Below are positions 821 through 41,690 of a DNA stretch of 64,000 bases, piece after piece. Each line of letters begins with the position of its first letter. The stretch's first letter is position 1. A program made the position numbers and the translations under genes. Under the pieces are notes generated by a model that searched no databases, was not told the DNA's origin, and saw only the letters and a program-made list of their open reading frames with translations. The stretch is from Escherichia coli (lineage in GTDB: Bacteria; Pseudomonadota; Gammaproteobacteria; Enterobacterales; Enterobacteriaceae): the NCBI RefSeq assembly GCF_030013205.1, contig NZ_CP122648.1; one strand, given 5' to 3'.

Positions 821-1639
821 ATGCGATTAGCAAGTCGTTTTGGTCATGTAAACCAGATACGCCGTGACCGTCCGCTGACACATGAAGAACTGATGCACTA
901 TGTACCCAGTATTTTTGGGGAAGATCGGCATACCTCCCGCAGTGAACGCTATGCGTACATTCCCACCATCACCGTACTGGAAAGCCTGCAGCGGGAAGGT
1001 TTTCAGCCATTCTTCGCCTGCCAGACCCGCGTGCGCGATCCGGGCCGCCGGGGATACACCAGACACATGCTGCGTCTGCGGCGGGCCGGGGAGATAACCG
1101 GACAACATGTCCCTGAAATTATTCTGCTCAACTCCCATGACGGTACCTCCAGCTACCAGATGCTGCCGGGTTACTTCAGATTCGTCTGCCAGAACGGCTG
1201 CGTCTGCGGTCAGTCTCTGGGGGAAGTCCGTGTGCCCCACCGGGGAAATGTGGTGGACAGAGTCATTGAAGGGGCTTACGAGGTAGTGGGCGTTTTTGAC
1301 CGGATTGAGGAAAAGCGTGATGCCATGCAGTCTCTGGTCCTGCCGCCACCGGCACGTCAGGCGCTGGCACAGGCGGCACTGACTTACCGTTATGGTGACG
1401 AACATCAGCCGGTCACCACCGCCGACATTCTGACGCCACGACGCAGGGAGGATTACGGTAAGGACCTGTGGAGTGCATATCAGACCATCCAGGAGAATAT
1501 GCTGAAAGGCGGGATTTCCGGTCGCAGCGCTAAAGGAAAACGTATCCACACCCGTGCCATTCACAGCATCGACACGGACATTAGGCTCAACCGCGCATTG
1601 TGGGTGATGGCAGAAACGCTGCTGGAGAGCCTGCGCTGA
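821..1639 (+). CDS. DUF932-family island protein (YfjQ/YafZ-like)
   Basis: 272-aa ORF with RBS aaggag; translation resembles K-12 cryptic-prophage YfjQ/YafZ proteins (recall). Confidence 0.65.
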   Translation: MRLASRFGHVNQIRRDRPLTHEELMHYVPSIFGEDRHTSRSERYAYIPTITVLESLQREGFQPFFACQTRVRDPGRRGYTRHMLRLRRAGEITGQHVPEIILLNSHDGTSSYQMLPGYFRFVCQNGCVCGQSLGEVRVPHRGNVVDRVIEGAYEVVGVFDRIEEKRDAMQSLVLPPPARQALAQAALTYRYGDEHQPVTTADILTPRRREDYGKDLWSAYQTIQENMLKGGISGRSAKGKRIHTRAIHSIDTDIRLNRALWVMAETLLESLR

Positions 1640-1730
1640 TGCTGTTTCCCTGAAAGTGCAGCCCTGACTCACGTCTGTACCAGTCCCCAGGCATTCTTCC
1701 ATTCATTTGCTTTTTATAAGGAATAATCTC

Positions 1731-2216
1731 ATGACAACCTCTTCGCATAATTCCACCACACCTTCTGTTTCCGTAACCGCTGCATCAGGGAATAACCAGT
1801 CTCAACTGGTTGCCACTCCCGTCCCTGATGAACAGCGCATCAGTTTCTGGCCGCAGCACTTTGGCCTCATTCCACAGTGGGTGACCCTGGAGCCCCGTAT
1901 CTTCGGCTGGATGGACCGTCTGTGTGAAGACTACTGCGGTGGTATCTGGAATCTGTATACCCTGAACAACGGCGGGGCATTTATGGCACCCGAACCGGAT
2001 GACGATGATGACGAAACATGGGTACTGTTCAATGCCATGAACGGTAACCGCGCTGAAATGAGCCCGGAAGCCGCCGGTATTGCCGCCTGTCTGATGACGT
2101 ACAGCCATCATGCCTGTCGTACGGAGTGTTATGCCATGACGGTCCATTATTACCGGCTGCGGGATTACGCCCTGCAGCATCCTGAATGCAGCGCCATTAT
2201 GCGCATCATCGACTGA
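1731..2216 (+). CDS. Antirestriction protein, KlcA/ArdB family (YfjX/YafX-like)
   Basis: ORF 1707-2216; start chosen at MTTSSH; acidic stretch DDDDDE; position before radC-like gene as in CP4-type islands. Confidence 0.6.
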   Translation: MTTSSHNSTTPSVSVTAASGNNQSQLVATPVPDEQRISFWPQHFGLIPQWVTLEPRIFGWMDRLCEDYCGGIWNLYTLNNGGAFMAPEPDDDDDETWVLFNAMNGNRAEMSPEAAGIAACLMTYSHHACRTECYAMTVHYYRLRDYALQHPECSAIMRIID

Positions 2217-2230
2217 GCCGGAGAAGCACA

Positions 2231-2707
2231 ATGCAACAACTTTCCTTTCTGCCCGGAGAGATGACAACCAGAGAGCGCAGTCTCATTCTGCGGGCCCTGA
2301 AAACCCTGGACCGCCATCTTCATGAACCCGGTGTGGCCTTCACCTCCACGCATGCGGCACGGGAATGGCTGATTCTGAACATGGCAGGACTGGAGCGGGA
2401 AGAGTTCCGGGTACTGTATCTGAACAACCAGAATCAGCTGATTGCGGGTGAAACCCTCTTCACCGGCACCATCAACCGCACGGAGGTCCATCCCCGGGAA
2501 GTGATTAAACGTGCCCTGTACCACAATGCCGCTGCCGTGATACTGGCACACAACCACCCGTCCGGTGAAGTCACTCCCAGTAAGGCAGACCGGCTTATTA
2601 CGGAACGTCTGGTACAGGCACTGGCCATGGTGGATATCCGGGTGCCGGACCATCTGATAGTCGGTGGCAGCCAGGTTTTCTCCTTTGCCGAACACGGTCT
2701 GCTTTAA
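2231..2707 (+). CDS. RadC-like JAB-domain protein (YeeS/YkfG/YfjY family)
   Basis: Motif HNHPSG...PS..D (JAMM-like) in translation; start at MQQLSFLPGE. Confidence 0.7.
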   Translation: MQQLSFLPGEMTTRERSLILRALKTLDRHLHEPGVAFTSTHAAREWLILNMAGLEREEFRVLYLNNQNQLIAGETLFTGTINRTEVHPREVIKRALYHNAAAVILAHNHPSGEVTPSKADRLITERLVQALAMVDIRVPDHLIVGGSQVFSFAEHGLL

Positions 2708-2775
2708 CCCGTCACCGTCACAACCACATCACACCTGTTTTCACTTTTATCTTCTGTCTTCAGAGGTATCCCACC

Positions 2776-2997
2776 ATGAAAATTATCACCCGTGGTGAAG
2801 CCATGCGCATTCACCGTCAGCATCCGGCATCCCGTCTTTTTCCGTTCTGCACCGGTAAGTACCGCTGGCACGGCAGCACTGAGGCATATACCGGTCGTGA
2901 AGTGCAGGATATTCCCGGTGTGCTGGCCGTGTTTGCTGAACGCCGTAAGGACAGTTTTGGCCCGTATGTCCGGCTGATGAGTGTAACCCTGAACTGA
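2776..2997 (+). CDS. YeeT/YkfH/YpjJ-family small protein (DUF987)
   Basis: 73-aa ORF MKIITRGEAMRIH... near-identical in my recollection to K-12 YeeT. Confidence 0.7.
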   Translation: MKIITRGEAMRIHRQHPASRLFPFCTGKYRWHGSTEAYTGREVQDIPGVLAVFAERRKDSFGPYVRLMSVTLN

Positions 2998-3015
2998 GTC
3001 AGGAAGGGAATTCTG

Positions 3016-3660
3016 ATGAGCAGAATTATCACCACCACCGTGTATACGCTGGATGAACTTTCCTGCCCGGCACGGGAAAAAGCCCGCGACGGGTACCGTC
3101 AGCATCATGCTGACAGCAACTGGTATGAAAACGTGTATGAAGACTTCAGGGAGGTCTGTGACATTTTCGGGATTAACCTCCGCCAGCGTGTTATCCGGCT
3201 CAGCAGTGGCAGGTTTATGGAAGAGCCGTGCATCTGGTTCAGCGGATTCTGCAGCCAGGGGGACGGAGCCTGTTTTGAAGGACGCTGGCACTGGCAGTCA
3301 GCAACAGCCAGGAGAATCCGGGAGTATGCCCCACAGGACCGTGAAATTCATCGTATCGCGGATGCCCTGCAGTCGGTACAGAAGCGTAACTTCTGGCAGT
3401 TACAGGCTGAAATCAGTCACCGGGGACGTTACTGCCATCCGTACAGCATGGATATCACCGTCACCCGGAACAGTCCGACTGGTCAGGTAATGACAACCGA
3501 TGCGGAAGCCGCTGTCAGCGAAGCCCTGCGCGACCTGGCCTTCTGGTTGTACCGTCAGCTGGAAAACGAGTACGACTGGCTGACCTCAGACGCCGCTGTG
3601 GATGAGGCCCTTCTCATCAACGAATACACCTTCACCGAAGCCGGTCTGCGCGCCGGCTGA
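3016..3660 (+). CDS. Hypothetical Cys/His-rich 214-aa protein, unassigned
   Basis: Clean ORF with RBS aggaagg 8 nt upstream of ATG; sits between yeeT-like and cbeA-like genes where K-12 clusters have no gene (recall). Confidence 0.5.
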   Translation: MSRIITTTVYTLDELSCPAREKARDGYRQHHADSNWYENVYEDFREVCDIFGINLRQRVIRLSSGRFMEEPCIWFSGFCSQGDGACFEGRWHWQSATARRIREYAPQDREIHRIADALQSVQKRNFWQLQAEISHRGRYCHPYSMDITVTRNSPTGQVMTTDAEAAVSEALRDLAFWLYRQLENEYDWLTSDAAVDEALLINEYTFTEAGLRAG

Positions 3661-3709
3661 CTCGTCATCGTTAAACTATCATTCACCGATTTTCTGTGAG
3701 GATTTTATC

Positions 3710-4078
3710 GTGTCAGACACACTCCATGAAACAAATTATCCCGACGACAACAACGACCGCTCCTGGTGGGGGCTACCCTGCACCGTGACGCCCTGTTTCA
3801 GGGCACGTCTGGTGCAGGAAGGGAACCGGTTGCATTACCTTGCAGACCGTGCCGGTATCAGAGGCCGGTTCAGCGACGCGGATGCGTACCATCTGGACCA
3901 GGCCTTTCCGCTGCTGATGAAACAACTGGAACTCATGCTCACCAGCGGTGAACTCAGTCCCCGCCATCAGCATACCGTCACGCTGTATGCAAAAGGGCTG
4001 ACCTGCGAAGCCGACACCCTCGGCAGTTGTGGCTACGTTTATATGGCTGTTTATCCGACGCCCGAAACGAAAAAGTAA
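3710..4078 (+). CDS. Type IV antitoxin, CbeA/YeeU/YfjZ/YafW family
   Basis: 122 codons from GTG 3710; translation closely matches K-12 CbeA (WWGLPCTVTPCF..., LYAKGLTC...) from memory. Confidence 0.75.
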   Translation: MSDTLHETNYPDDNNDRSWWGLPCTVTPCFRARLVQEGNRLHYLADRAGIRGRFSDADAYHLDQAFPLLMKQLELMLTSGELSPRHQHTVTLYAKGLTCEADTLGSCGYVYMAVYPTPETKK

Positions 4079-4167
4079 ATAATCAGAATAACCTTCTGCT
4101 CCGGCCAGGTGCTTTCACCACACCACTTTCCCATTTCTCATCTCTGCATATCAGGAAAATCTTCAGT

Positions 4168-4545
4168 ATGAAAACATTACCTGTATTACCCGGGCAGGCG
4201 GCCGGTTTACGCCCGTCTCCGGTTGAAATCTGGCAGACACTGCTTACCAGACTGCTGGACCAGCATTACGGCCTCACGCTGAATGACACGCCGTTTGCCG
4301 ATGAACGTGTGATTGAGCAGCATATTGAGGCAGGCATATCACTGTGTGATGCGGTGAACTTTCTCGTGGAAAAATACGCGCTGGTGCGTACCGACAAGCC
4401 GGGATTCAACGCCTGTACCCACTCTCAGTTAATAAACAGCATCGATATCCTCCGGGCCCGCCGGGCAACAGGCCTGATGACCCGCGACAATTACAGAACG
4501 GTGAACAATATCACCCGGGGTAAACATTCGGAGGCGAAACGATGA
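4168..4545 (+). CDS. Type IV toxin, CbtA/YeeV/YkfI/YpjF family (cytoskeleton inhibitor)
   Basis: MKTLPVLPGQAA... matches K-12 CbtA N-terminus and length (about 125 aa); directly downstream of the antitoxin. Confidence 0.75.
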   Translation: MKTLPVLPGQAAGLRPSPVEIWQTLLTRLLDQHYGLTLNDTPFADERVIEQHIEAGISLCDAVNFLVEKYALVRTDKPGFNACTHSQLINSIDILRARRATGLMTRDNYRTVNNITRGKHSEAKR

Positions 4546-5030
4546 AACTGACCCTGACACTGGAAGCCGACAGTATTAATGTGCAGGCACTGAACATGGA
4601 GCGAATTGTTGTTGACGTCGATGGTATTGAGCTCGCTGAACTGATTAATAAGGTCGCTGAAAACGGTTATTCACTCCGCGTGGTGGATGCTCCCGAACAG
4701 CAGACAACGGATTCTCCACCATCGTTTACGGCCCTTACCGGCATACGCTGCAGTACCGCACATATCACGGAAAAGGATAACGCCTGGCTGTACTCGCTGT
4801 CACACCAGACCAGTGACTTCGGTGAATCAGAATGGATTCATTTCACAGGTAGCGGATATCTGTTACGTACCGATGCGTGGTCATATCCGGTTCTGCGGCT
4901 TAAACGCCTGGGGCTGTCAAAAACGTTCCGTCGTCTGGTTGTCACACTCATCCAACGTTATGGCGTCAGTCTCATTCATCTGGATGCCAGCGCTGAATGT
5001 CTGCCGGACCTGCCCACTTTCGACTGGTAA
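4542..5030 (+). CDS. YeeW-like protein downstream of the toxin
   Basis: 162-aa ORF whose ATG overlaps the cbtA stop (ATGA); same position as yeeW in CP4-44-type clusters. Confidence 0.5.
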   Translation: MKLTLTLEADSINVQALNMERIVVDVDGIELAELINKVAENGYSLRVVDAPEQQTTDSPPSFTALTGIRCSTAHITEKDNAWLYSLSHQTSDFGESEWIHFTGSGYLLRTDAWSYPVLRLKRLGLSKTFRRLVVTLIQRYGVSLIHLDASAECLPDLPTFDW

Positions 5031-5041
5031 CCAGGAACAAC

Positions 5042-5239
5042 ATGAAATCATTAACCACAGAAACCGCACTGGATATTCTGATTGCGTGGCTACAAGACAA
5101 TATCGACTGCGAATCGGGAATTATCTTTGACAACGATGAGGATAGAACGGATTCGGCAGCACTGTTGCCCTGTATCGAACAGGCCAGAGAGGATGTCCGT
5201 ACCCTGCGTCAGCTGCAGTTTCTGCAACAGAACCGGTGA
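5042..5239 (+). CDS. Small acidic hypothetical protein (65 aa)
   Basis: ATG at 5042 preceded by aggaac; followed by a terminator. Confidence 0.35.
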   Translation: MKSLTTETALDILIAWLQDNIDCESGIIFDNDEDRTDSAALLPCIEQAREDVRTLRQLQFLQQNR

Positions 5240-5267
5240 GTCTTACTCACCAGACTTCATTCCACTG

Positions 5268-5300
5268 ACGCCAGCCTGAATACGGCTGGCGTTTTCGTTT
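5268..5300 (+). terminator. Rho-independent terminator
   Basis: acgccagcc / ggctggcgt hairpin followed by ttttcgttt. Confidence 0.5.
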
Positions 5301-5323
5301 ATCTGCAAAAAGGAATATCGATT

Positions 5324-6166
5324 ATGTCTGAAATCACAGCCTCTCGTCCGGAAGTGGTCAACGGGCATACGGACGTTATCTGCTCAACCAGTATCCGCCA
5401 CATTCTGGCTGTACGAAAGAGTACATTGCTGCAAATCGACACACTTATCCGGCAACTGGCTGAAATATCAGCAATGACAGAAAGTATTGGAGGTAAAACG
5501 GCTCTGGACTGGGCCATGAAACAGGATTTTCGCTGCGGTTGCTGGCTGATGGAGAAACCGGAAACCGCAATGAAAGCCATCACACGCAATCTTGATCGCG
5601 AACTCTGGCGTGATCTGATGCAACGTTCCGGGTTGCTGAGTCTGATGGATGCGCAGACCCGGGACACATGGTACAGGTCACTGGAATATGATAATTTTCC
5701 GGAAATCAGCGAAGCGAACATTCTGAGCACATTTGAACAACTGCACCAGAACAAAGATGAAGTGTTTGAACGGGGAGTGATCAACGTCTTCAAAGGGCTG
5801 AGCTGGGATTACAAAACCAACTCACCCTGTAAATTTGGCAGTAAAATTATCGTCAACAATCTGGTGAGGTGGGACCAGTGGGGATTTCATCTTATCAGTG
5901 GAATGCAGGCAGATCGCCTGGCTGACCTGGAAAGAATGTTGCATCTGCTCAGCGGTAAACCGATCCCCGACAACCGGGGGAATATCACCATTAATCTGGA
6001 TGACCACATACAGTCCGTTCAGGGTAAAGGACGCTATGAAGATGAGATGTTCATCATTAAATACTTTAAGAAGGGATCTGCACACATCACTTTCAAAAGG
6101 CTGGAGCTGATTGACAGAATTAACGATATAATAGCTAGGCACTTTCCTTCTGTGCTCTCAGCCTGA
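5324..6166 (+). CDS. Hypothetical 280-aa island protein (possibly DUF4942-like)
   Basis: ORF with RBS aaaggaa; last gene before the att repeat; family assignment is from memory only. Confidence 0.45.
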   Translation: MSEITASRPEVVNGHTDVICSTSIRHILAVRKSTLLQIDTLIRQLAEISAMTESIGGKTALDWAMKQDFRCGCWLMEKPETAMKAITRNLDRELWRDLMQRSGLLSLMDAQTRDTWYRSLEYDNFPEISEANILSTFEQLHQNKDEVFERGVINVFKGLSWDYKTNSPCKFGSKIIVNNLVRWDQWGFHLISGMQADRLADLERMLHLLSGKPIPDNRGNITINLDDHIQSVQGKGRYEDEMFIIKYFKKGSAHITFKRLELIDRINDIIARHFPSVLSA

Positions 6167-6276
6167 CCCCGAGTTTGATTCCCTTTCGATATCAAAAGGG
6201 ACTGCGGGTACAAAAGAGGGTACATCTTTCACCAAACCAAACAAAATAAACTAATATCAACATGATAGAAGCATTC

Positions 6277-6298
6277 TTCGATTCCGAGTCCGGCACCA
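6277..6298 (+). repeat. 3' fragment of tRNA-Phe (ttcgattccgagtccggcacca): island att direct repeat, not a full tRNA gene
   Basis: Matches T-arm/acceptor end of E. coli tRNA-Phe; no tRNA body upstream; accessory genes stop here and the K-12-like cadC upstream region follows. Confidence 0.7.
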
Positions 6299-6309
6299 AA
6301 TTCATATAA

Positions 6310-6340
6310 ACGGACCTCCACGGAGGTCCGTTTTTCGTTT
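6310..6340 (+). terminator. Rho-independent terminator (probably the native pheU terminator)
   Basis: cggacctcc / ggaggtccg hairpin followed by tttttcgttt. Confidence 0.6.
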
Positions 6341-6914
6341 CAGGACGCCACAATTTAAGCGTTCTGCCTAAAAATCATTTCTACCGAACTCAACCAAATT
6401 CTCCCCACAACACCAGCATTTTGCGGGTATATCCCAATTCGGGAAAATTTGTTCCTGAGCTATAGCGCTGACTGACGTGAAATGTCGTGCGACCCCGTGA
6501 TGCTGTTGAATGTCAAATGACGTCATCAGGAGCGTAACGCATCCATAAAGCACAACACCGGTCTGAACGCCGACTGATGAGATTTTCTGAATGAGAACAA
6601 AGAGAAATGTATCAGTCCGCTTGCTCATGCAAAGACTAACAATCCATAAAAATAGTAAGCGCGCCGGGCAATTTCCCATGGATTATTTTCTGAACATTTT
6701 TCTTTGGCAAAGATGATGAATTTTGATGATAAGGAATATTACTTCTGGTTCTCAGTAAAATCCTTTCGTAATACTATGTAATCAAGAAGTTTATGGCTGG
6801 TAAAAATAACGTCTTGCATTCACCAATAATATGTAAATAAAACCATCTATAGATGGTAAAAATAGGTTGTGGCAATTATCATTGCATCATTCCCTTTTCG
6901 AATGAGTTTCTATT

Positions 6915-8453
6915 ATGCAACAACCTGTAGTTCGCGTTGGCGAATGGCTTGTTACTCCGTCCATAAACCAAATTAGCCGCAATGGGCGTCAACTTACCCT
7001 TGAGCCGAGATTAATCGATCTTCTGGTTTTCTTTGCTCAACACAGTGGCGAAGTACTTAGCAGGGATGAACTTATCGATAATGTCTGGAAGAGAAGTATT
7101 GTCACCAATCACGTTGTGACGCAGAGTATCTCAGAACTACGTAAGTCATTAAAAGATAATGATGAAGATAGTCCTGTCTATATCGCTACTGTACCAAAGC
7201 GCGGCTATAAATTAATGGTGCCGGTTATCTGGTACAGCGAAGAAGAGGGAGAGGAAATAATGCTATCTTCGCCTCCCCCTATACCAGAGGCGGTTCCTGA
7301 CACAGATTCTCCCTCCCACAGTCTTAACATTCAAAACACCGCAACACCACCTGAACAATCCCCTGTTAAAAGCAAACGATTCACTACCTTTTGGGTATGG
7401 TTTTTTTTCCTGTTGTCGTTAGGTATCTGTGTAGCACTGGTAGCGTTTTCAAGTCTTGATACACGTCTTCCGATGAGCAAATCGCGTATTTTGCTCAATC
7501 CACGCGATATTGACATTAATATGGTAAATAAAAGTTGTAACAGCTGGAGTTCCCCGTATCAGCTCTCTTACGCGATAGGCGTGGGTGATTTGGTGGCGAC
7601 ATCACTTAACACCTTCTCCACCTTTATGGTGCATGACAAAATCAACTACAACATTGATGAACCGAGCAGTTCCGGTAAAACATTATCTATTGCGTTTGTT
7701 AATCAGCGCCAATACCGTGCTCAACAATGCTTTATGTCGGTAAAATTGGTAGACAATGCAGATGGTTCAACCATGCTGGATAAACGTTATGTCATCACTA
7801 ACGGTAATCAGCTGGCGATTCAAAATGATTTACTGGAGAGTTTATCAAAAGCGTTAAACCAACCGTGGCCACAACGAATGCAGGAGATGCTCCAGCAAAT
7901 TTTGCCTCATCGTGGTGCGTTATTAACTAATTTTTATCAGGCACATGATTATTTACTGCATGGCGATGATAAATCATTGAACCGTGCCAGTGAATTATTG
8001 GGTGAGATTGTTCAATCATCCCCAGAATTTACCTACGCGAGAGCAGAAAAAGCATTAGTTGATATCGTGCGCCATTCTCAACATCCTTTAGATGAAAAAC
8101 AATTAGCAGCACTGAACACAGAAATAGATAACATTGTTACACTACCGGAATTGAATAACCTGTCCATTATATATCAAATAAAAGCGGTCAGTGCTCTGGT
8201 AAAAGGTAAAACAGATGAGTCTTATCAGGCGATAAATACTGGCATTGATCTTGAAATGTCCTGGCTAAATTATGTATTGCTTGGCAAGGTTTATGAAATG
8301 AAGGGGATGAACCGGGAAGCAGCTGATGCATATCTCACCGCCTTTAATTTACGCCCAGGGGCAAACACCCTTTACTGGATTGAAAATGGTATATTCCAGA
8401 CTTCTGTTCCTTATGTTGTACCTTATCTCGACAAATTTCTCGCTTCAGAATAA
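6915..8453 (+). CDS. cadC: CadC, membrane-integrated ToxR-like transcriptional activator of cadBA
   Basis: 512 aa; N-terminal winged-helix DNA-binding domain, one transmembrane segment, periplasmic sensor; matches K-12 CadC. Confidence 0.95.
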   Translation: MQQPVVRVGEWLVTPSINQISRNGRQLTLEPRLIDLLVFFAQHSGEVLSRDELIDNVWKRSIVTNHVVTQSISELRKSLKDNDEDSPVYIATVPKRGYKLMVPVIWYSEEEGEEIMLSSPPPIPEAVPDTDSPSHSLNIQNTATPPEQSPVKSKRFTTFWVWFFFLLSLGICVALVAFSSLDTRLPMSKSRILLNPRDIDINMVNKSCNSWSSPYQLSYAIGVGDLVATSLNTFSTFMVHDKINYNIDEPSSSGKTLSIAFVNQRQYRAQQCFMSVKLVDNADGSTMLDKRYVITNGNQLAIQNDLLESLSKALNQPWPQRMQEMLQQILPHRGALLTNFYQAHDYLLHGDDKSLNRASELLGEIVQSSPEFTYARAEKALVDIVRHSQHPLDEKQLAALNTEIDNIVTLPELNNLSIIYQIKAVSALVKGKTDESYQAINTGIDLEMSWLNYVLLGKVYEMKGMNREAADAYLTAFNLRPGANTLYWIENGIFQTSVPYVVPYLDKFLASE

Positions 8454-8818
8454 GTAACTCCCGGGTTGATTTATGCTCGGCAATATTTGTTGTTGAGTTT
8501 TTGTATGTTCCTGTTGGTATAATATGTTGCGGCAATTTATTTGCCGCATAATTTTTATTACATAAATTTAACCAGAAAATATCCCGCAATCCATTGTAAA
8601 CATTGAATGTTTATCTTTTCATGATATCAACTTGCGATCCTGATGTGTTAATAAAAAACCTCAAGTTCTCACTTACAGAAACTTTTGTGTTATTTCACCT
8701 AATCTTTAGGATTAATCCTTTTTTCGTGAGTATTCTTAGCACCAGTTTGGTCTGGTCAGGAAATAGTTATACATCATGACCCGGACTCCAAATTCAAAAA
8801 TGAAATTAGGAGAAGAGC
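8454..8818 (+). promoter_or_regulatory. cadBA promoter region (Pcad) with CadC binding sites
   Basis: AT-rich 365-bp intergenic region between cadC and cadB; site positions not resolved. Confidence 0.5.
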
Positions 8819-10153
8819 ATGAGTTCTGCCAAGAAGATCGGGCTATTTGCCTGTACCGGTGTTGTTGCCGGTAATATGATGGGGAGCGGTATTGCATTAT
8901 TACCTGCGAACCTAGCAAGTATCGGTGGTATTGCTATCTGGGGTTGGATTATCTCTATTATTGGTGCAATGTCGCTGGCGTATGTATATGCCCGACTGGC
9001 AACAAAAAACCCGCAACAAGGTGGCCCAATTGCTTATGCCGGAGAAATTTCCCCTGCATTTGGTTTTCAGACAGGTGTTCTTTATTACCATGCTAACTGG
9101 ATTGGTAACCTGGCGATTGGTATTACCGCTGTATCTTATCTTTCCACCTTCTTCCCAGTATTAAATGATCCTGTTCCGGCGGGTATCGCCTGTATTGCTA
9201 TCGTCTGGGTATTTACCTTTGTAAATATGCTCGGCGGTACCTGGGTAAGCCGTTTAACCACTATTGGTCTGGTGCTGGTTCTTATTCCTGTGGTAATGAC
9301 AGCTATTGTTGGCTGGCATTGGTTTGATGCTGCGACTTATGCTGCTAACTGGAATACTGCGGATACCACTGATGGTCATGCGATCATTAAAAGTATTCTG
9401 CTCTGCCTGTGGGCCTTCGTGGGTGTTGAATCCGCAGCTGTAAGTACTGGTATGGTTAAAAACCCGAAACGTACCGTTCCGCTGGCAACCATGCTGGGTA
9501 CTGGTTTAGCAGGTATTGTTTATATCGCTGCGACTCAGGTGCTTTCCGGTATGTATCCGTCTTCTGTAATGGCAGCTTCCGGTGCTCCGTTTGCAATCAG
9601 TGCTTCAACTATCCTCGGTAACTGGGCTGCGCCGCTGGTTTCTGCATTCACCGCCTTTGCGTGCCTGACTTCTCTGGGCTCCTGGATGATGTTGGTAGGC
9701 CAGGCAGGTGTACGTGCCGCTAACGACGGTAACTTCCCGAAAGTTTATGGTGAAGTCGACAGCAACGGTATTCCGAAAAAAGGTCTGCTGCTGGCTGCAG
9801 TGAAAATGACTGCCCTGATGATCCTCATCACTCTGATGAACTCTGCCGGTGGTAAAGCATCTGACCTGTTCGGTGAACTGACCGGTATCGCAGTACTGCT
9901 GACTATGCTGCCGTACTTCTACTCTTGCGTTGACCTGATTCGTTTTGAAGGCGTTAACATCCGCAACTTTGTCAGCCTGATCTGCTCTGTACTGGGTTGC
10001 GTGTTCTGCTTCATCGCGCTGATGGGCGCAAGCTCCTTCGAGCTGGCAGGTACCTTCATCGTCAGCCTGATTATCCTGATGTTCTACGCTCGCAAAATGC
10101 ACGAGCGCCAGAGCCACTCAATGGATAACCACACAGCGTCTAACGCACATTAA
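8819..10153 (+). CDS. cadB: Lysine/cadaverine antiporter
   Basis: 444 aa APC-family transporter; matches K-12 CadB. Confidence 0.95.
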   Translation: MSSAKKIGLFACTGVVAGNMMGSGIALLPANLASIGGIAIWGWIISIIGAMSLAYVYARLATKNPQQGGPIAYAGEISPAFGFQTGVLYYHANWIGNLAIGITAVSYLSTFFPVLNDPVPAGIACIAIVWVFTFVNMLGGTWVSRLTTIGLVLVLIPVVMTAIVGWHWFDAATYAANWNTADTTDGHAIIKSILLCLWAFVGVESAAVSTGMVKNPKRTVPLATMLGTGLAGIVYIAATQVLSGMYPSSVMAASGAPFAISASTILGNWAAPLVSAFTAFACLTSLGSWMMLVGQAGVRAANDGNFPKVYGEVDSNGIPKKGLLLAAVKMTALMILITLMNSAGGKASDLFGELTGIAVLLTMLPYFYSCVDLIRFEGVNIRNFVSLICSVLGCVFCFIALMGASSFELAGTFIVSLIILMFYARKMHERQSHSMDNHTASNAH

Positions 10154-33943: not shown

Positions 33944-35035
33944 ATGCGTTTTCTGCGCCGACCAATATCGCTGCGCCAACGGCTGATATTGACCATTGGG
34001 GCCATTTTGTTGGTGTTTGAGCTGATCAGCGTCTTCTGGCTATGGCATGAAAGTACCGAGCAGATTCAGCTGTTTGAGCAGGCGCTACGCGACAATCGCA
34101 ACAACGATCGCCACATCATGCGTGAGATCCGCGAGGCGGTCGCCAGCCTGATCGTCCCCGGCGTCTTTATGGTCAGCCTGACGCTATTTATCTGCTATCA
34201 GGCGGTACGCCGCATCACCCGCCCGCTGGCGGAGCTGCAAAAAGAGCTGGAAGCGCGCACCGCCGACAACTTAACGCCCATTGCCATTCACAGCGCCACC
34301 CTCGAAATCGAAGCGGTGGTTTCGGCGTTAAACGATCTGGTCAGTCGCCTGACCAACACGCTGGATAACGAAAGGTTGTTTACCGCTGACGTCGCGCACG
34401 AACTGCGAACGCCACTGGCGGGGGTGCGTTTGCATCTGGAACTGCTGGCGAAAACGCATCACATTGATGTAGCACCGTTAGTGGCACGGCTTGATCAGAT
34501 GATGGAGAGCGTCTCCCAGCTGCTGCAACTGGCGCGTGCCGGACAGTCATTTTCTTCCGGTAATTATCAACATGTAAAACTGCTGGAAGATGTCATTCTC
34601 CCCTCGTATGACGAACTCAGTACCATGCTCGACCAGCGACAGCAAACCCTGCTATTGCCAGAGAGCGCCGCCGACATCACCGTTCAGGGTGATGCAACCC
34701 TGCTGCGGATGTTATTGCGAAACCTGGTAGAAAACGCCCATCGTTACAGCCCGCAAGGCAGCAACATTATGATTAAGCTGCAAGAAGATGGCGGAGCGGT
34801 CATGGCTGTTGAAGATGAAGGACCGGGTATTGATGAGAGTAAATGCGGGGAGTTGAGTAAAGCATTTGTACGTATGGACAGCCGTTATGGCGGGATTGGT
34901 CTGGGGTTAAGTATTGTCAGCCGCATTACACAGTTGCATCACGGGCAGTTTTTCCTGCAAAACCGGCAAGAGACTTCCGGCACGCGGGCCTGGGTACGGC
35001 TGAAGAAAGATCAGTACGTGGCAAACCAGATATAA
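33944..35035 (+). CDS. basS: Sensor kinase BasS (PmrB)
   Basis: About 363 aa; H-box ELRTPLA; ATG at 33944 (ORF track starts at TTG 33935). Confidence 0.9.
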   Translation: MRFLRRPISLRQRLILTIGAILLVFELISVFWLWHESTEQIQLFEQALRDNRNNDRHIMREIREAVASLIVPGVFMVSLTLFICYQAVRRITRPLAELQKELEARTADNLTPIAIHSATLEIEAVVSALNDLVSRLTNTLDNERLFTADVAHELRTPLAGVRLHLELLAKTHHIDVAPLVARLDQMMESVSQLLQLARAGQSFSSGNYQHVKLLEDVILPSYDELSTMLDQRQQTLLLPESAADITVQGDATLLRMLLRNLVENAHRYSPQGSNIMIKLQEDGGAVMAVEDEGPGIDESKCGELSKAFVRMDSRYGGIGLGLSIVSRITQLHHGQFFLQNRQETSGTRAWVRLKKDQYVANQI

Positions 35036-35100
35036 AGAAAGCTGCTGACCACCAGCACGCTGAACACGGTAGTTAAACTTTCATAAACACGGTTTTTCAT
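35011..35100 (-). CDS. pmrR: PmrR small membrane peptide (29 aa)
   Basis: Not in ORF track; reverse complement gives MKNRVYESLTTVFSVLVVSSFLYIWFATY; 3' end overlaps basS 3' end on the opposite strand. Confidence 0.75.
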   Translation of the reverse strand: MKNRVYESLTTVFSVLVVSSFLYIWFATY

Positions 35101-35103
35101 TGC

Positions 35104-35130
35104 ACTCTCCTCCGTTAACCTGGAGGAGAG
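35104..35130. terminator. Hairpin between convergent basS and proP
   Basis: ctctcctcc / ggaggagag stem. Confidence 0.45.
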
Positions 35131-35211
35131 TATGCGCGTCAGAGATTAAGTGAACCTTAAGACTTCAATTGGCCTGATAAGACAGCGTCACATCAGGCCA
35201 TCCGTTTCAGC

Positions 35212-41609: not shown

Positions 41610-41690
41610 GTAAGCCGGATAAGGCGCTCGCGCCGCATCCGGCAACGATGCCGACTGCCTGATGCGACGCTGACCGCGTCTTATCAGGCT
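41610..41690. repeat. REP/BIME-type extragenic palindromes
   Basis: gccggataaggcgctcgcgccgcatccggc and gcctgatgcgacgctgaccgcgtcttatcaggc. Confidence 0.7.

Follow-up and report, generated by a model that had tools for sequence, protein, structure and literature searches.

The last two genes of a chromosomal island in Escherichia coli, encoding a DUF957 and a DUF4942 protein, are ordinary terminal genes of a conserved backbone common to many E. coli islands and conjugative plasmids. They lie at 5042-5239 and 5324-6166 of a 64,000-nucleotide stretch of contig NZ_CP122648.1 (the window). Thousands of genomes already carry annotations for both, and they appear in gene lists from the earliest O157 and Shigella island sequences onwards. 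In the explanation that we propose, the backbone is the conserved arm of tRNA-integrated Enterobacterales islands, with the gene content of a conjugative-plasmid leading region. DUF4942 is the constant terminal gene of this arm; a terminator-like stem-loop sets it off, and past it come only repeats of arm-type appearance and the att core. It may serve as an early establishment or anti-defence factor, acting on the DNA of the element on its arrival in a new host. The part of this explanation that concerns backbone and anatomy is near certain, the functional part has at best about an even chance of being right, and the explanation as a whole we judge as likely to hold as to fail. DUF4942 is among the commonest uncharacterised genes of Enterobacterales mobile DNA. 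Three quarters of E. coli genomes have islands in which it is invariably the terminal gene, and it ranks among the top families at the end of conjugative resistance plasmids that enters first, including the IncI, IncF and IncL/M plasmids examined here and pOXA-48.

Conserved backbone and island boundary

Related loci were collected from one genome per species with a 12-sequence alignment, and the proteins of the window were mapped onto them. The resulting 80 loci, from about 60 Enterobacterales species, share a colinear backbone in the order DUF932, ArdB/KlcA, RadC, DUF987, CbeA, CbtA, optional DUF5983 and DUF957, and DUF4942. DUF4942 was the last gene, on the same strand as the others, in all 80 loci, and full-length DUF4942 open reading frames (ORFs) were kept across the approximately 60 species at 58-87% protein identity. 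The gene immediately 5' of it was DUF957 in about 30 loci, CbtA in about 27, DUF5983 in about 14 and CbeA in about 9. In eight loci (L010, L011, L015, L022, L023, L026, L039 and L048) the order was DUF5983, CbtA, CbeA, DUF4942; here the toxin gene comes before that of the antitoxin, opposite to the arrangement in the window.

DUF4942 DNA was present in 4,071 of 5,426 complete E. coli genomes (75%), at 8,440 places and up to nine times per genome, and DUF957 DNA in 3,617 of these genomes (67%). The first-pass annotation of the window had described the pair as accessory cargo at the island tip. That description was not supported: the segment is the most conserved part of the island and is often multicopy. 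The direct orthologues L0009/L0010 of the O157:H7 933L/LEE-flanking element (LEE, locus of enterocyte effacement) follow YeeV/YeeW (L0007/L0008) in the same order, and the same orthologous pair is found as orf55/orf56 of the Shigella SRL pathogenicity island, as Aec78/Aec79, and in the pheU, pheV and selC insertions of Shiga toxin-producing E. coli. Some of these islands carry extra genes (L0011, L0012, insertion sequence (IS) elements) past DUF4942, whereas here the att repeat follows directly.

The features of the island end are listed below by window position. Unless another basis is given, gene assignments rest on a Pfam match, the RefSeq annotation of an identical genome and colinear order in the 80 loci. 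All genes from 821 to 6166 are on the + strand.

821-1639, + strand: DUF932
1731-2216, + strand: antirestriction gene of the ArdB/KlcA type
2231-2707, + strand: RadC
2776-2997, + strand: DUF987
3016-3660, + strand: 214-aa hypothetical protein, between DUF987 and CbeA (RefSeq annotation of an identical genome)
3710-4078, + strand: CbeA/YeeU antitoxin
4168-4545, + strand: CbtA toxin
4542-5030, + strand: DUF5983 (YeeW-like; Pfam DUF5983_N and DUF5983); its start overlaps the cbtA stop
5042-5239, + strand: DUF957 (old names L0009, Aec78), 65 aa, assigned by identity to RefSeq WP_001374283.1
5233-5253, terminator-like site on the - strand: short inverted repeat GGTGAG...CTCACC, which includes the DUF957 stop codon and lies just 5' of the main hairpin
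5267-5293, + strand: GC-rich stem-loop with a T-rich tract, terminator-like, about 30 nt before the DUF4942 ATG
5324-6166, + strand: DUF4942, 280 aa, RefSeq WP_063086391.1
6206-6224, no strand assigned: two GGGTACA direct repeats, 12 nt from start to start, resembling arm-type recombinase sites as read from the sequence
6277-6298, + strand: att direct repeat (3' end of the pheU tRNA-Phe gene, 22/23 nt match), island boundary
6308-6333, + strand: chromosomal pheU terminator, the first + strand terminator-like site past DUF4942

The 214-aa ORF had no Pfam match, belongs to phrog_5162 (unknown function) and was found in only 5 of the 80 loci (L007, L008, L025, L052 and L053).

The att repeat matches the last nucleotides of tRNA-Phe at 22 of 23 positions and is followed by the pheU terminator and then cadC. 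No tRNA gene was found when the window was scanned. A 100%-identical genome carries an intact tRNA-Phe gene and a tyrosine recombinase integrase about 31 kb upstream. The island thus has a repeat of the tRNA 3' end at its distal boundary and the tRNA gene with the integrase at the opposite one, as pheU tRNA-integrated islands do, indicating that what lies in the window is the 6.3 kb of a pheU island farthest from its integrase. Over positions 4900-6400 the sequence is 100% identical to that of porcine enterotoxigenic E. coli (ETEC) strains, ETEC1748 among them. In the identical genome (NZ_CP122719.1, 4539158-4549172) the variable content of this island is found near the integrase and comprises IS debris, genes for a nucleotide-binding protein and a SLATT protein as a pair, and an anti-phage system of the Qat type (qatC, qatD, KAP NTPase).

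No additional ORF with homologues was detected between 6166 and the att repeat, and the earlier view of the pair as the last coding unit before this repeat stands. The accompanying claim that the 280-codon ORF is separately terminated does not: on the + strand no terminator-like site was found from the DUF4942 stop to the island end, and the first one is the pheU terminator beyond att.

Repeats similar to the GGGTACA pair are frequent in this position. A tandem repeat lies within 300 nt past DUF4942 in 44 of the 80 loci, mostly with the same 12-nt spacing, and its sequence varies by att type (TTACCTGACC before tRNA-Met, GATGGCATAC before tRNA-Asp). In appearance these repeats are recombinase sites of the arm type. 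A complete tRNA gene is present 100-240 nt downstream of DUF4942 in 14 loci. DUF4942 is thus the terminal gene of islands with many different integration modules. Directly 3' of the DUF4942 stop, the string GAGTTTGATTCCC (6171-6183) resembles a degenerate tRNA T-arm, perhaps left behind by a former att site; T-arm-like strings after DUF4942 were also seen in loci L006, L020, L032 and L043.

DUF4942 in plasmid leading regions

A tblastn search detected DUF4942 homologues in 4,368 of 72,556 plasmids, 4,000 of which (92%) were typed as conjugative. The plasmid proteins belong to the same Pfam family and are likewise stand-alone proteins of about 265-295 aa, typically 33-39% identical to the island protein over 94-95% of the query; one match is annotated ygfB. 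DUF4942 is one of the top 100 families of plasmid leading regions, and usually the ORF nearest to oriT, the transfer origin (Samuel & Burstein, families 24/76). The plasmid homologues lie on the leading side of oriT and are transcribed from the transferred strand.

The gene orders of individual plasmids were compared with the island backbone. In the IncI/K plasmid pCH49 (L091) psiB, psiA, ardA and other genes are followed by ygfB (DUF4942), which is directed at oriT/nikA. The order in the IncF plasmid pK518_KPC is ardA, ssb, ParB, psiB, psiA, DUF4942, an N6 methylase, an antirestriction gene and oriT/traM, and in a 105-kb plasmid it is PsiB, PsiA, MqsRA, ArdA, DUF4942 and an AcrVA2-like gene. 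An IncP-like contig has KorA, IncC, KorB, DUF4942, one ORF and a C5 methylase, and in an IncL/M plasmid (L092) DUF4942 comes after a JAB/RadC-like gene. The plasmid and island homologues share a co-directional neighbourhood of DUF932, ArdA/ArdB/KlcA, RadC/JAB and toxin-antitoxin genes, with DUF4942 at or near the end of the array. Given the leading-region homologues and these shared contexts, the island arm is a chromosomal counterpart of a plasmid leading region. ArdA and ArdB/KlcA, found in the same arrays as DUF4942 on islands and plasmids, are presumably expressed at the same time as it, early after entry, although they have no sequence or fold similarity to it.

The two settings differ in what surrounds the gene. 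Plasmid copies adjoin oriT, and those of IncI plasmids come after a long hairpin resembling a single-stranded DNA (ssDNA) promoter, whereas the island copy adjoins att and comes after a short terminator-like hairpin. In pCH49 the 580 nt before ygfB (8382-8961) are predicted to fold strongly as ssDNA (z -11.2), and this gap shares 60-70-nt segments of 87-90% identity with the gap upstream of ygcA (5716-5973). Both gaps are candidate ssDNA promoters of the ssi/Frpo type. Such promoters drive early leading-region operons in the IncI1 plasmid pESBL (PMC12672017), and the pCH49 element resembles them. In the window the gap between Ag43 and DUF932 showed moderate ssDNA structure (z -3.5).

Insertions with resistance genes were seen a short way downstream of plasmid copies of DUF4942. 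In the IncL/M plasmid (about 9804-11237) the distance from the end of DUF4942 to blaCTX-M-14 is about 560 nt, and in pOXA-48 variants ISEcp1-blaCTX-M-14b has been reported 37 nt after z1226.

The position of DUF4942 is also what might be expected of an accessory to DNA processing, that is, of a directionality or architectural factor which would act in att recombination where the gene is on an island and in the processing of oriT where it is on a plasmid. The gene adjoins att arm repeats in islands of many att and tRNA types, is the ORF nearest to oriT in many plasmids and is co-directional with the integrase gene in the 100%-identical genome, where, with no terminator before the att core, read-through could enter int after excision. 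However, this one family occurs together with very different integrase/att types and with several relaxase types (MOBP, MOBF), whereas a site-specific factor should vary along with them. Several genes separate it from oriT in IncF and IncL/M plasmids, and the protein has no similarity to excisionases (Xis) or other recombination directionality factors, to IHF-like proteins or to relaxosome proteins. A DNA-processing role is thus unlikely.

The DUF4942 protein and its possible role

The first-pass annotation had guessed the family of the 280-aa protein correctly. Pfam PF13708 (DUF4942) matched with 223.8 bits (cut-off 25, E 1.9e-66), residues 87-275 aligning to profile positions 1-189 of 190. 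The protein is 100% identical to RefSeq WP_063086391.1 and is built as stand-alone members of the family usually are, with a length of about 260-295 aa and a conserved helical extension on the N-terminal side of the Pfam domain. Relatives were found in 2,570 clusters of a 90% database and as 2,236 representatives in a 50% library. Most of the best 150 of these 2,236 are 255-300 aa long and were aligned from about residue 15 to 279. W95, D201, H254 and N267 are invariant in the alignment.

An AlphaFold2 (AF2) model built from 73 diverse sequences was predicted with high confidence (predicted local distance difference test, pLDDT, 90.3; predicted template modelling score, pTM, 0.81). It consists of a long helix (24-54), a helical bundle (79-160) and an alpha/beta domain (174-273). 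Single-sequence and profile searches of the PDB found nothing, and the best Foldseek match of the model in the PDB had an E-value of 0.34, so there is no solved structural relative. In BFVD only other DUF4942-type phage proteins matched. A confident model without a solved relative suggests that the mechanism of DUF4942 may not be a copy of a known one.

Some sources name DUF4942 proteins 'methyltransferase' or 'restriction methylase'. Certain relatives of about 460 aa do consist of an N-terminal DUF4942 part and a C-terminal class-I S-adenosylmethionine (SAM) methyltransferase domain with the motifs LEPSAGxG and NPPF; this domain (about 190 aa) is weakly closest to M.TaqI. The same fold is matched by PHROG 6263 ('DNA methyltransferase') and by a phage protein of 531 aa. 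In the orphan N6-adenine methyltransferases of phages and mobile elements (about 460-530 aa, PHROG 6263) the N-terminal DUF4942 part is homologous to the window protein over its whole length, but the window protein does not have their catalytic domain. Pfam detected DUF4942 and no methyltransferase in it, its 280 residues contain neither (D/N)PP(Y/F), nor any PP dipeptide, nor a GxGxG-type SAM motif, and its model had no Rossmann-like match in the PDB. The motifs of the fused relatives sit in the extra C-terminal part that is absent here. Lacking this SAM-dependent domain, the window protein cannot methylate by itself; the database names are not justified for it, and that it should be an active methyltransferase is hardly credible. 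The idea of a split enzyme, made of DUF4942 and the neighbouring N6 methylase of IncF plasmids, was also considered and rejected, the methylase not being homologous to the fused catalytic domain.

Context and fusions together point to an early establishment or anti-defence role. DUF4942 would then most likely be a non-catalytic module recognising DNA or an enzyme, as in its fusions to orphan N6-adenine methyltransferases of phages and other elements. If this holds, DUF4942 would be of broad relevance as a target, whether the aim is to understand how plasmids and islands spread or to block it.

Several observations weigh against this interpretation. Identity between island and plasmid proteins is only 33-39%, and for this reason their roles may differ. 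A position in the leading region tells when a gene is likely to be used, not what it does, and in pESBL part of the leading-region genes is not induced early (PMC12672017). The island has no known oriT or relaxase, nor was either found, and the ssDNA structure of the 110-nt tail past DUF4942 was not significant (z -1.5). The methyltransferase fusions are a minority (4 of the best 150 representatives), and the N6 methylase beside DUF4942 in IncF plasmids is not a homologue of the fused domain. Finally, the literature holds only passing mentions and no experiment on DUF957 or DUF4942.

A bolder version can be formulated. The islands would be conjugatively mobilisable and their integrase-distal arm a true leading region. 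DUF4942, the first gene or the last before att, would have an undescribed fold, recognise either the entering DNA, perhaps in single-stranded form, or a restriction/modification enzyme of the host, and protect the element, while read-through past the hairpin across attP would couple the array to integrase expression. As there is no terminator between DUF4942 and the att core, such coupling in the excised circle is conceivable. At the island tip neither an ATCCTG nick motif of the IncP/IncI type nor a GGTGTGG motif of the F type was found nearby. We consider this version improbable.

The DUF957 gene and the hairpin before DUF4942

Both ORFs exist as first described, 65 aa at 5042-5239 and 280 aa at 5324-6166. 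The DUF957 start at 5042 is that of RefSeq and of the orthologues (the program-made ORF list extends to an ATG at 4997), and an AGGA Shine-Dalgarno (SD) sequence lies about 9 nt 5' of the ATG. The protein is acidic, as had been noted (pI 4.16), and 100% identical to WP_001374283.1, 'DUF957 domain-containing protein'. The profile searches that had been proposed for both translations gave, besides the DUF4942 family, no family for DUF957 at E <= 0.01 in the searched copies of Pfam-A and NCBIfam, which possibly do not include the model behind the RefSeq name. Nevertheless, 363 protein clusters matched, many of them named DUF957. Eighteen distinct orthologues come from other genera and share the motif LTTExALxIL..WLQDNIDC...IIFDNDEDxTDS..LLP.IEQA. 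The median pairwise dN/dS of 0.21 indicates purifying selection, and an AF2 model predicts a helix (6-22), an acidic loop and a second helix (38-65). The small ORF is thus conserved, and no housekeeping or structural function surfaced for the 280-aa protein, the two points on which the first-pass annotation might have been overturned. Its statement that the function is unknown also holds, as both proteins are functionally uncharacterised.

DUF957 starts 11 nt after DUF5983 and is nearly confined to loci that also contain DUF5983. Because of this near-confinement, the short gap and the overlap between DUF5983 and cbtA, DUF957 has to be assigned to the upstream cbeA-cbtA-DUF5983 unit, not to DUF4942. 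It is an optional small acidic helix-loop-helix protein encoded by the last gene of this transcription unit. The notion of a dedicated two-gene module, put forward at first, therefore fails: DUF957 precedes DUF4942 in only about 30 of the 80 loci, the two have independent distributions on plasmids, and a conserved hairpin lies between them.

This hairpin (5267-5293) has a 10-bp stem with seven GC pairs, a calculated dG of -18.4 kcal/mol and the tail TTCGTTTATC. With its GC-rich stem-loop, T tract and conserved pairing it has the sequence characteristics of a putative intrinsic (Rho-independent) terminator. Of 62 testable gaps, 51 contain an equivalent hairpin 20-30 nt ahead of the DUF4942 start, and the hairpin occurs in about 69 distinct related loci irrespective of the upstream gene. 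In a 46-locus alignment seven of the nine pairs of the 9-bp consensus stem showed compensatory double changes. No Rfam family matched the stretch 4900-6900 at E <= 1, and with gathering thresholds there was no match close to the locus. A consensus scan found no sigma-70 promoter for DUF4942 on the + strand in 3500-7000, and the approximately 30 nt from the hairpin to the ATG contain only the T tract and an SD sequence. In the simplest reading the hairpin would be an intrinsic terminator that accompanies DUF4942 from locus to locus, so that transcription of the gene would depend on read-through. We propose that in the resident island DUF4942 is made only at a low, read-through level.

These data also bear on the view that the pair is accessory cargo after all, for instance a toxin-antitoxin-like or anti-phage defence pair. 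Its location at the island tip beside the att repeat would suit such cargo, the order of a small acidic protein before a larger one is superficially that of antitoxin and toxin, and a genuine toxin-antitoxin pair, CbeA/CbtA, lies immediately upstream. However, neither protein matched a PADLOC-DB 2.0 family at E <= 1, and there was no NCBIfam or toxin-antitoxin Pfam match. Obligate co-occurrence was not observed, DUF957 accompanying DUF4942 in fewer than half of the loci and not on plasmids, and the terminator-like hairpin separates the genes. When DUF957 was joined to DUF4942 by a Gly/Ser linker, the AF2 model had a pTM of 0.61 (0.81 for DUF4942 alone) without confident docking. This is a weak test, made without the predicted aligned error, and the value is about what is expected if only DUF4942 is placed, so that it lends no support to a DUF957-DUF4942 complex. 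The segment is, moreover, conserved backbone in most E. coli genomes, the defence cargo sits at the integrase end, and DUF4942 is enriched in plasmid leading regions, where counter-defence rather than defence genes cluster. A cargo pair is thus very improbable.

Alternatively, the genes might be functionless, hitch-hiking remnants of an ancestral plasmid leading region. Truncated and IS-interrupted DUF4942 copies do exist, including partial proteins, and an ISSfl8 insertion in one copy has been described (PMC7371111); the terminator-like hairpin may also hold expression low. Against decay stand the full-length DUF4942 ORFs with invariant residues in about 60 species, the low dN/dS of DUF957 and the pairing of the hairpin, kept by compensatory changes. 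We find it quite improbable that the genes are remnants, and retain the establishment or anti-defence role as the working explanation for DUF4942.

Distant homologues of DUF957 (49% identity) were found in IncHI2 plasmids, where they adjoin a DUF3085 gene and have no DUF4942 nearby. In one of them (L093, NZ_CP122769.1, 6974-7781) a 103-aa homologue is followed 4 nt later by the DUF3085 gene, both within a long co-directional array of small hypothetical genes. Elsewhere in the window, and unrelated to the gene pair, Rfam gave two small RNA matches at gathering level, STnc630 (35004-35169, - strand) and naRNA4 (CssrE; 41613-41690, + strand).

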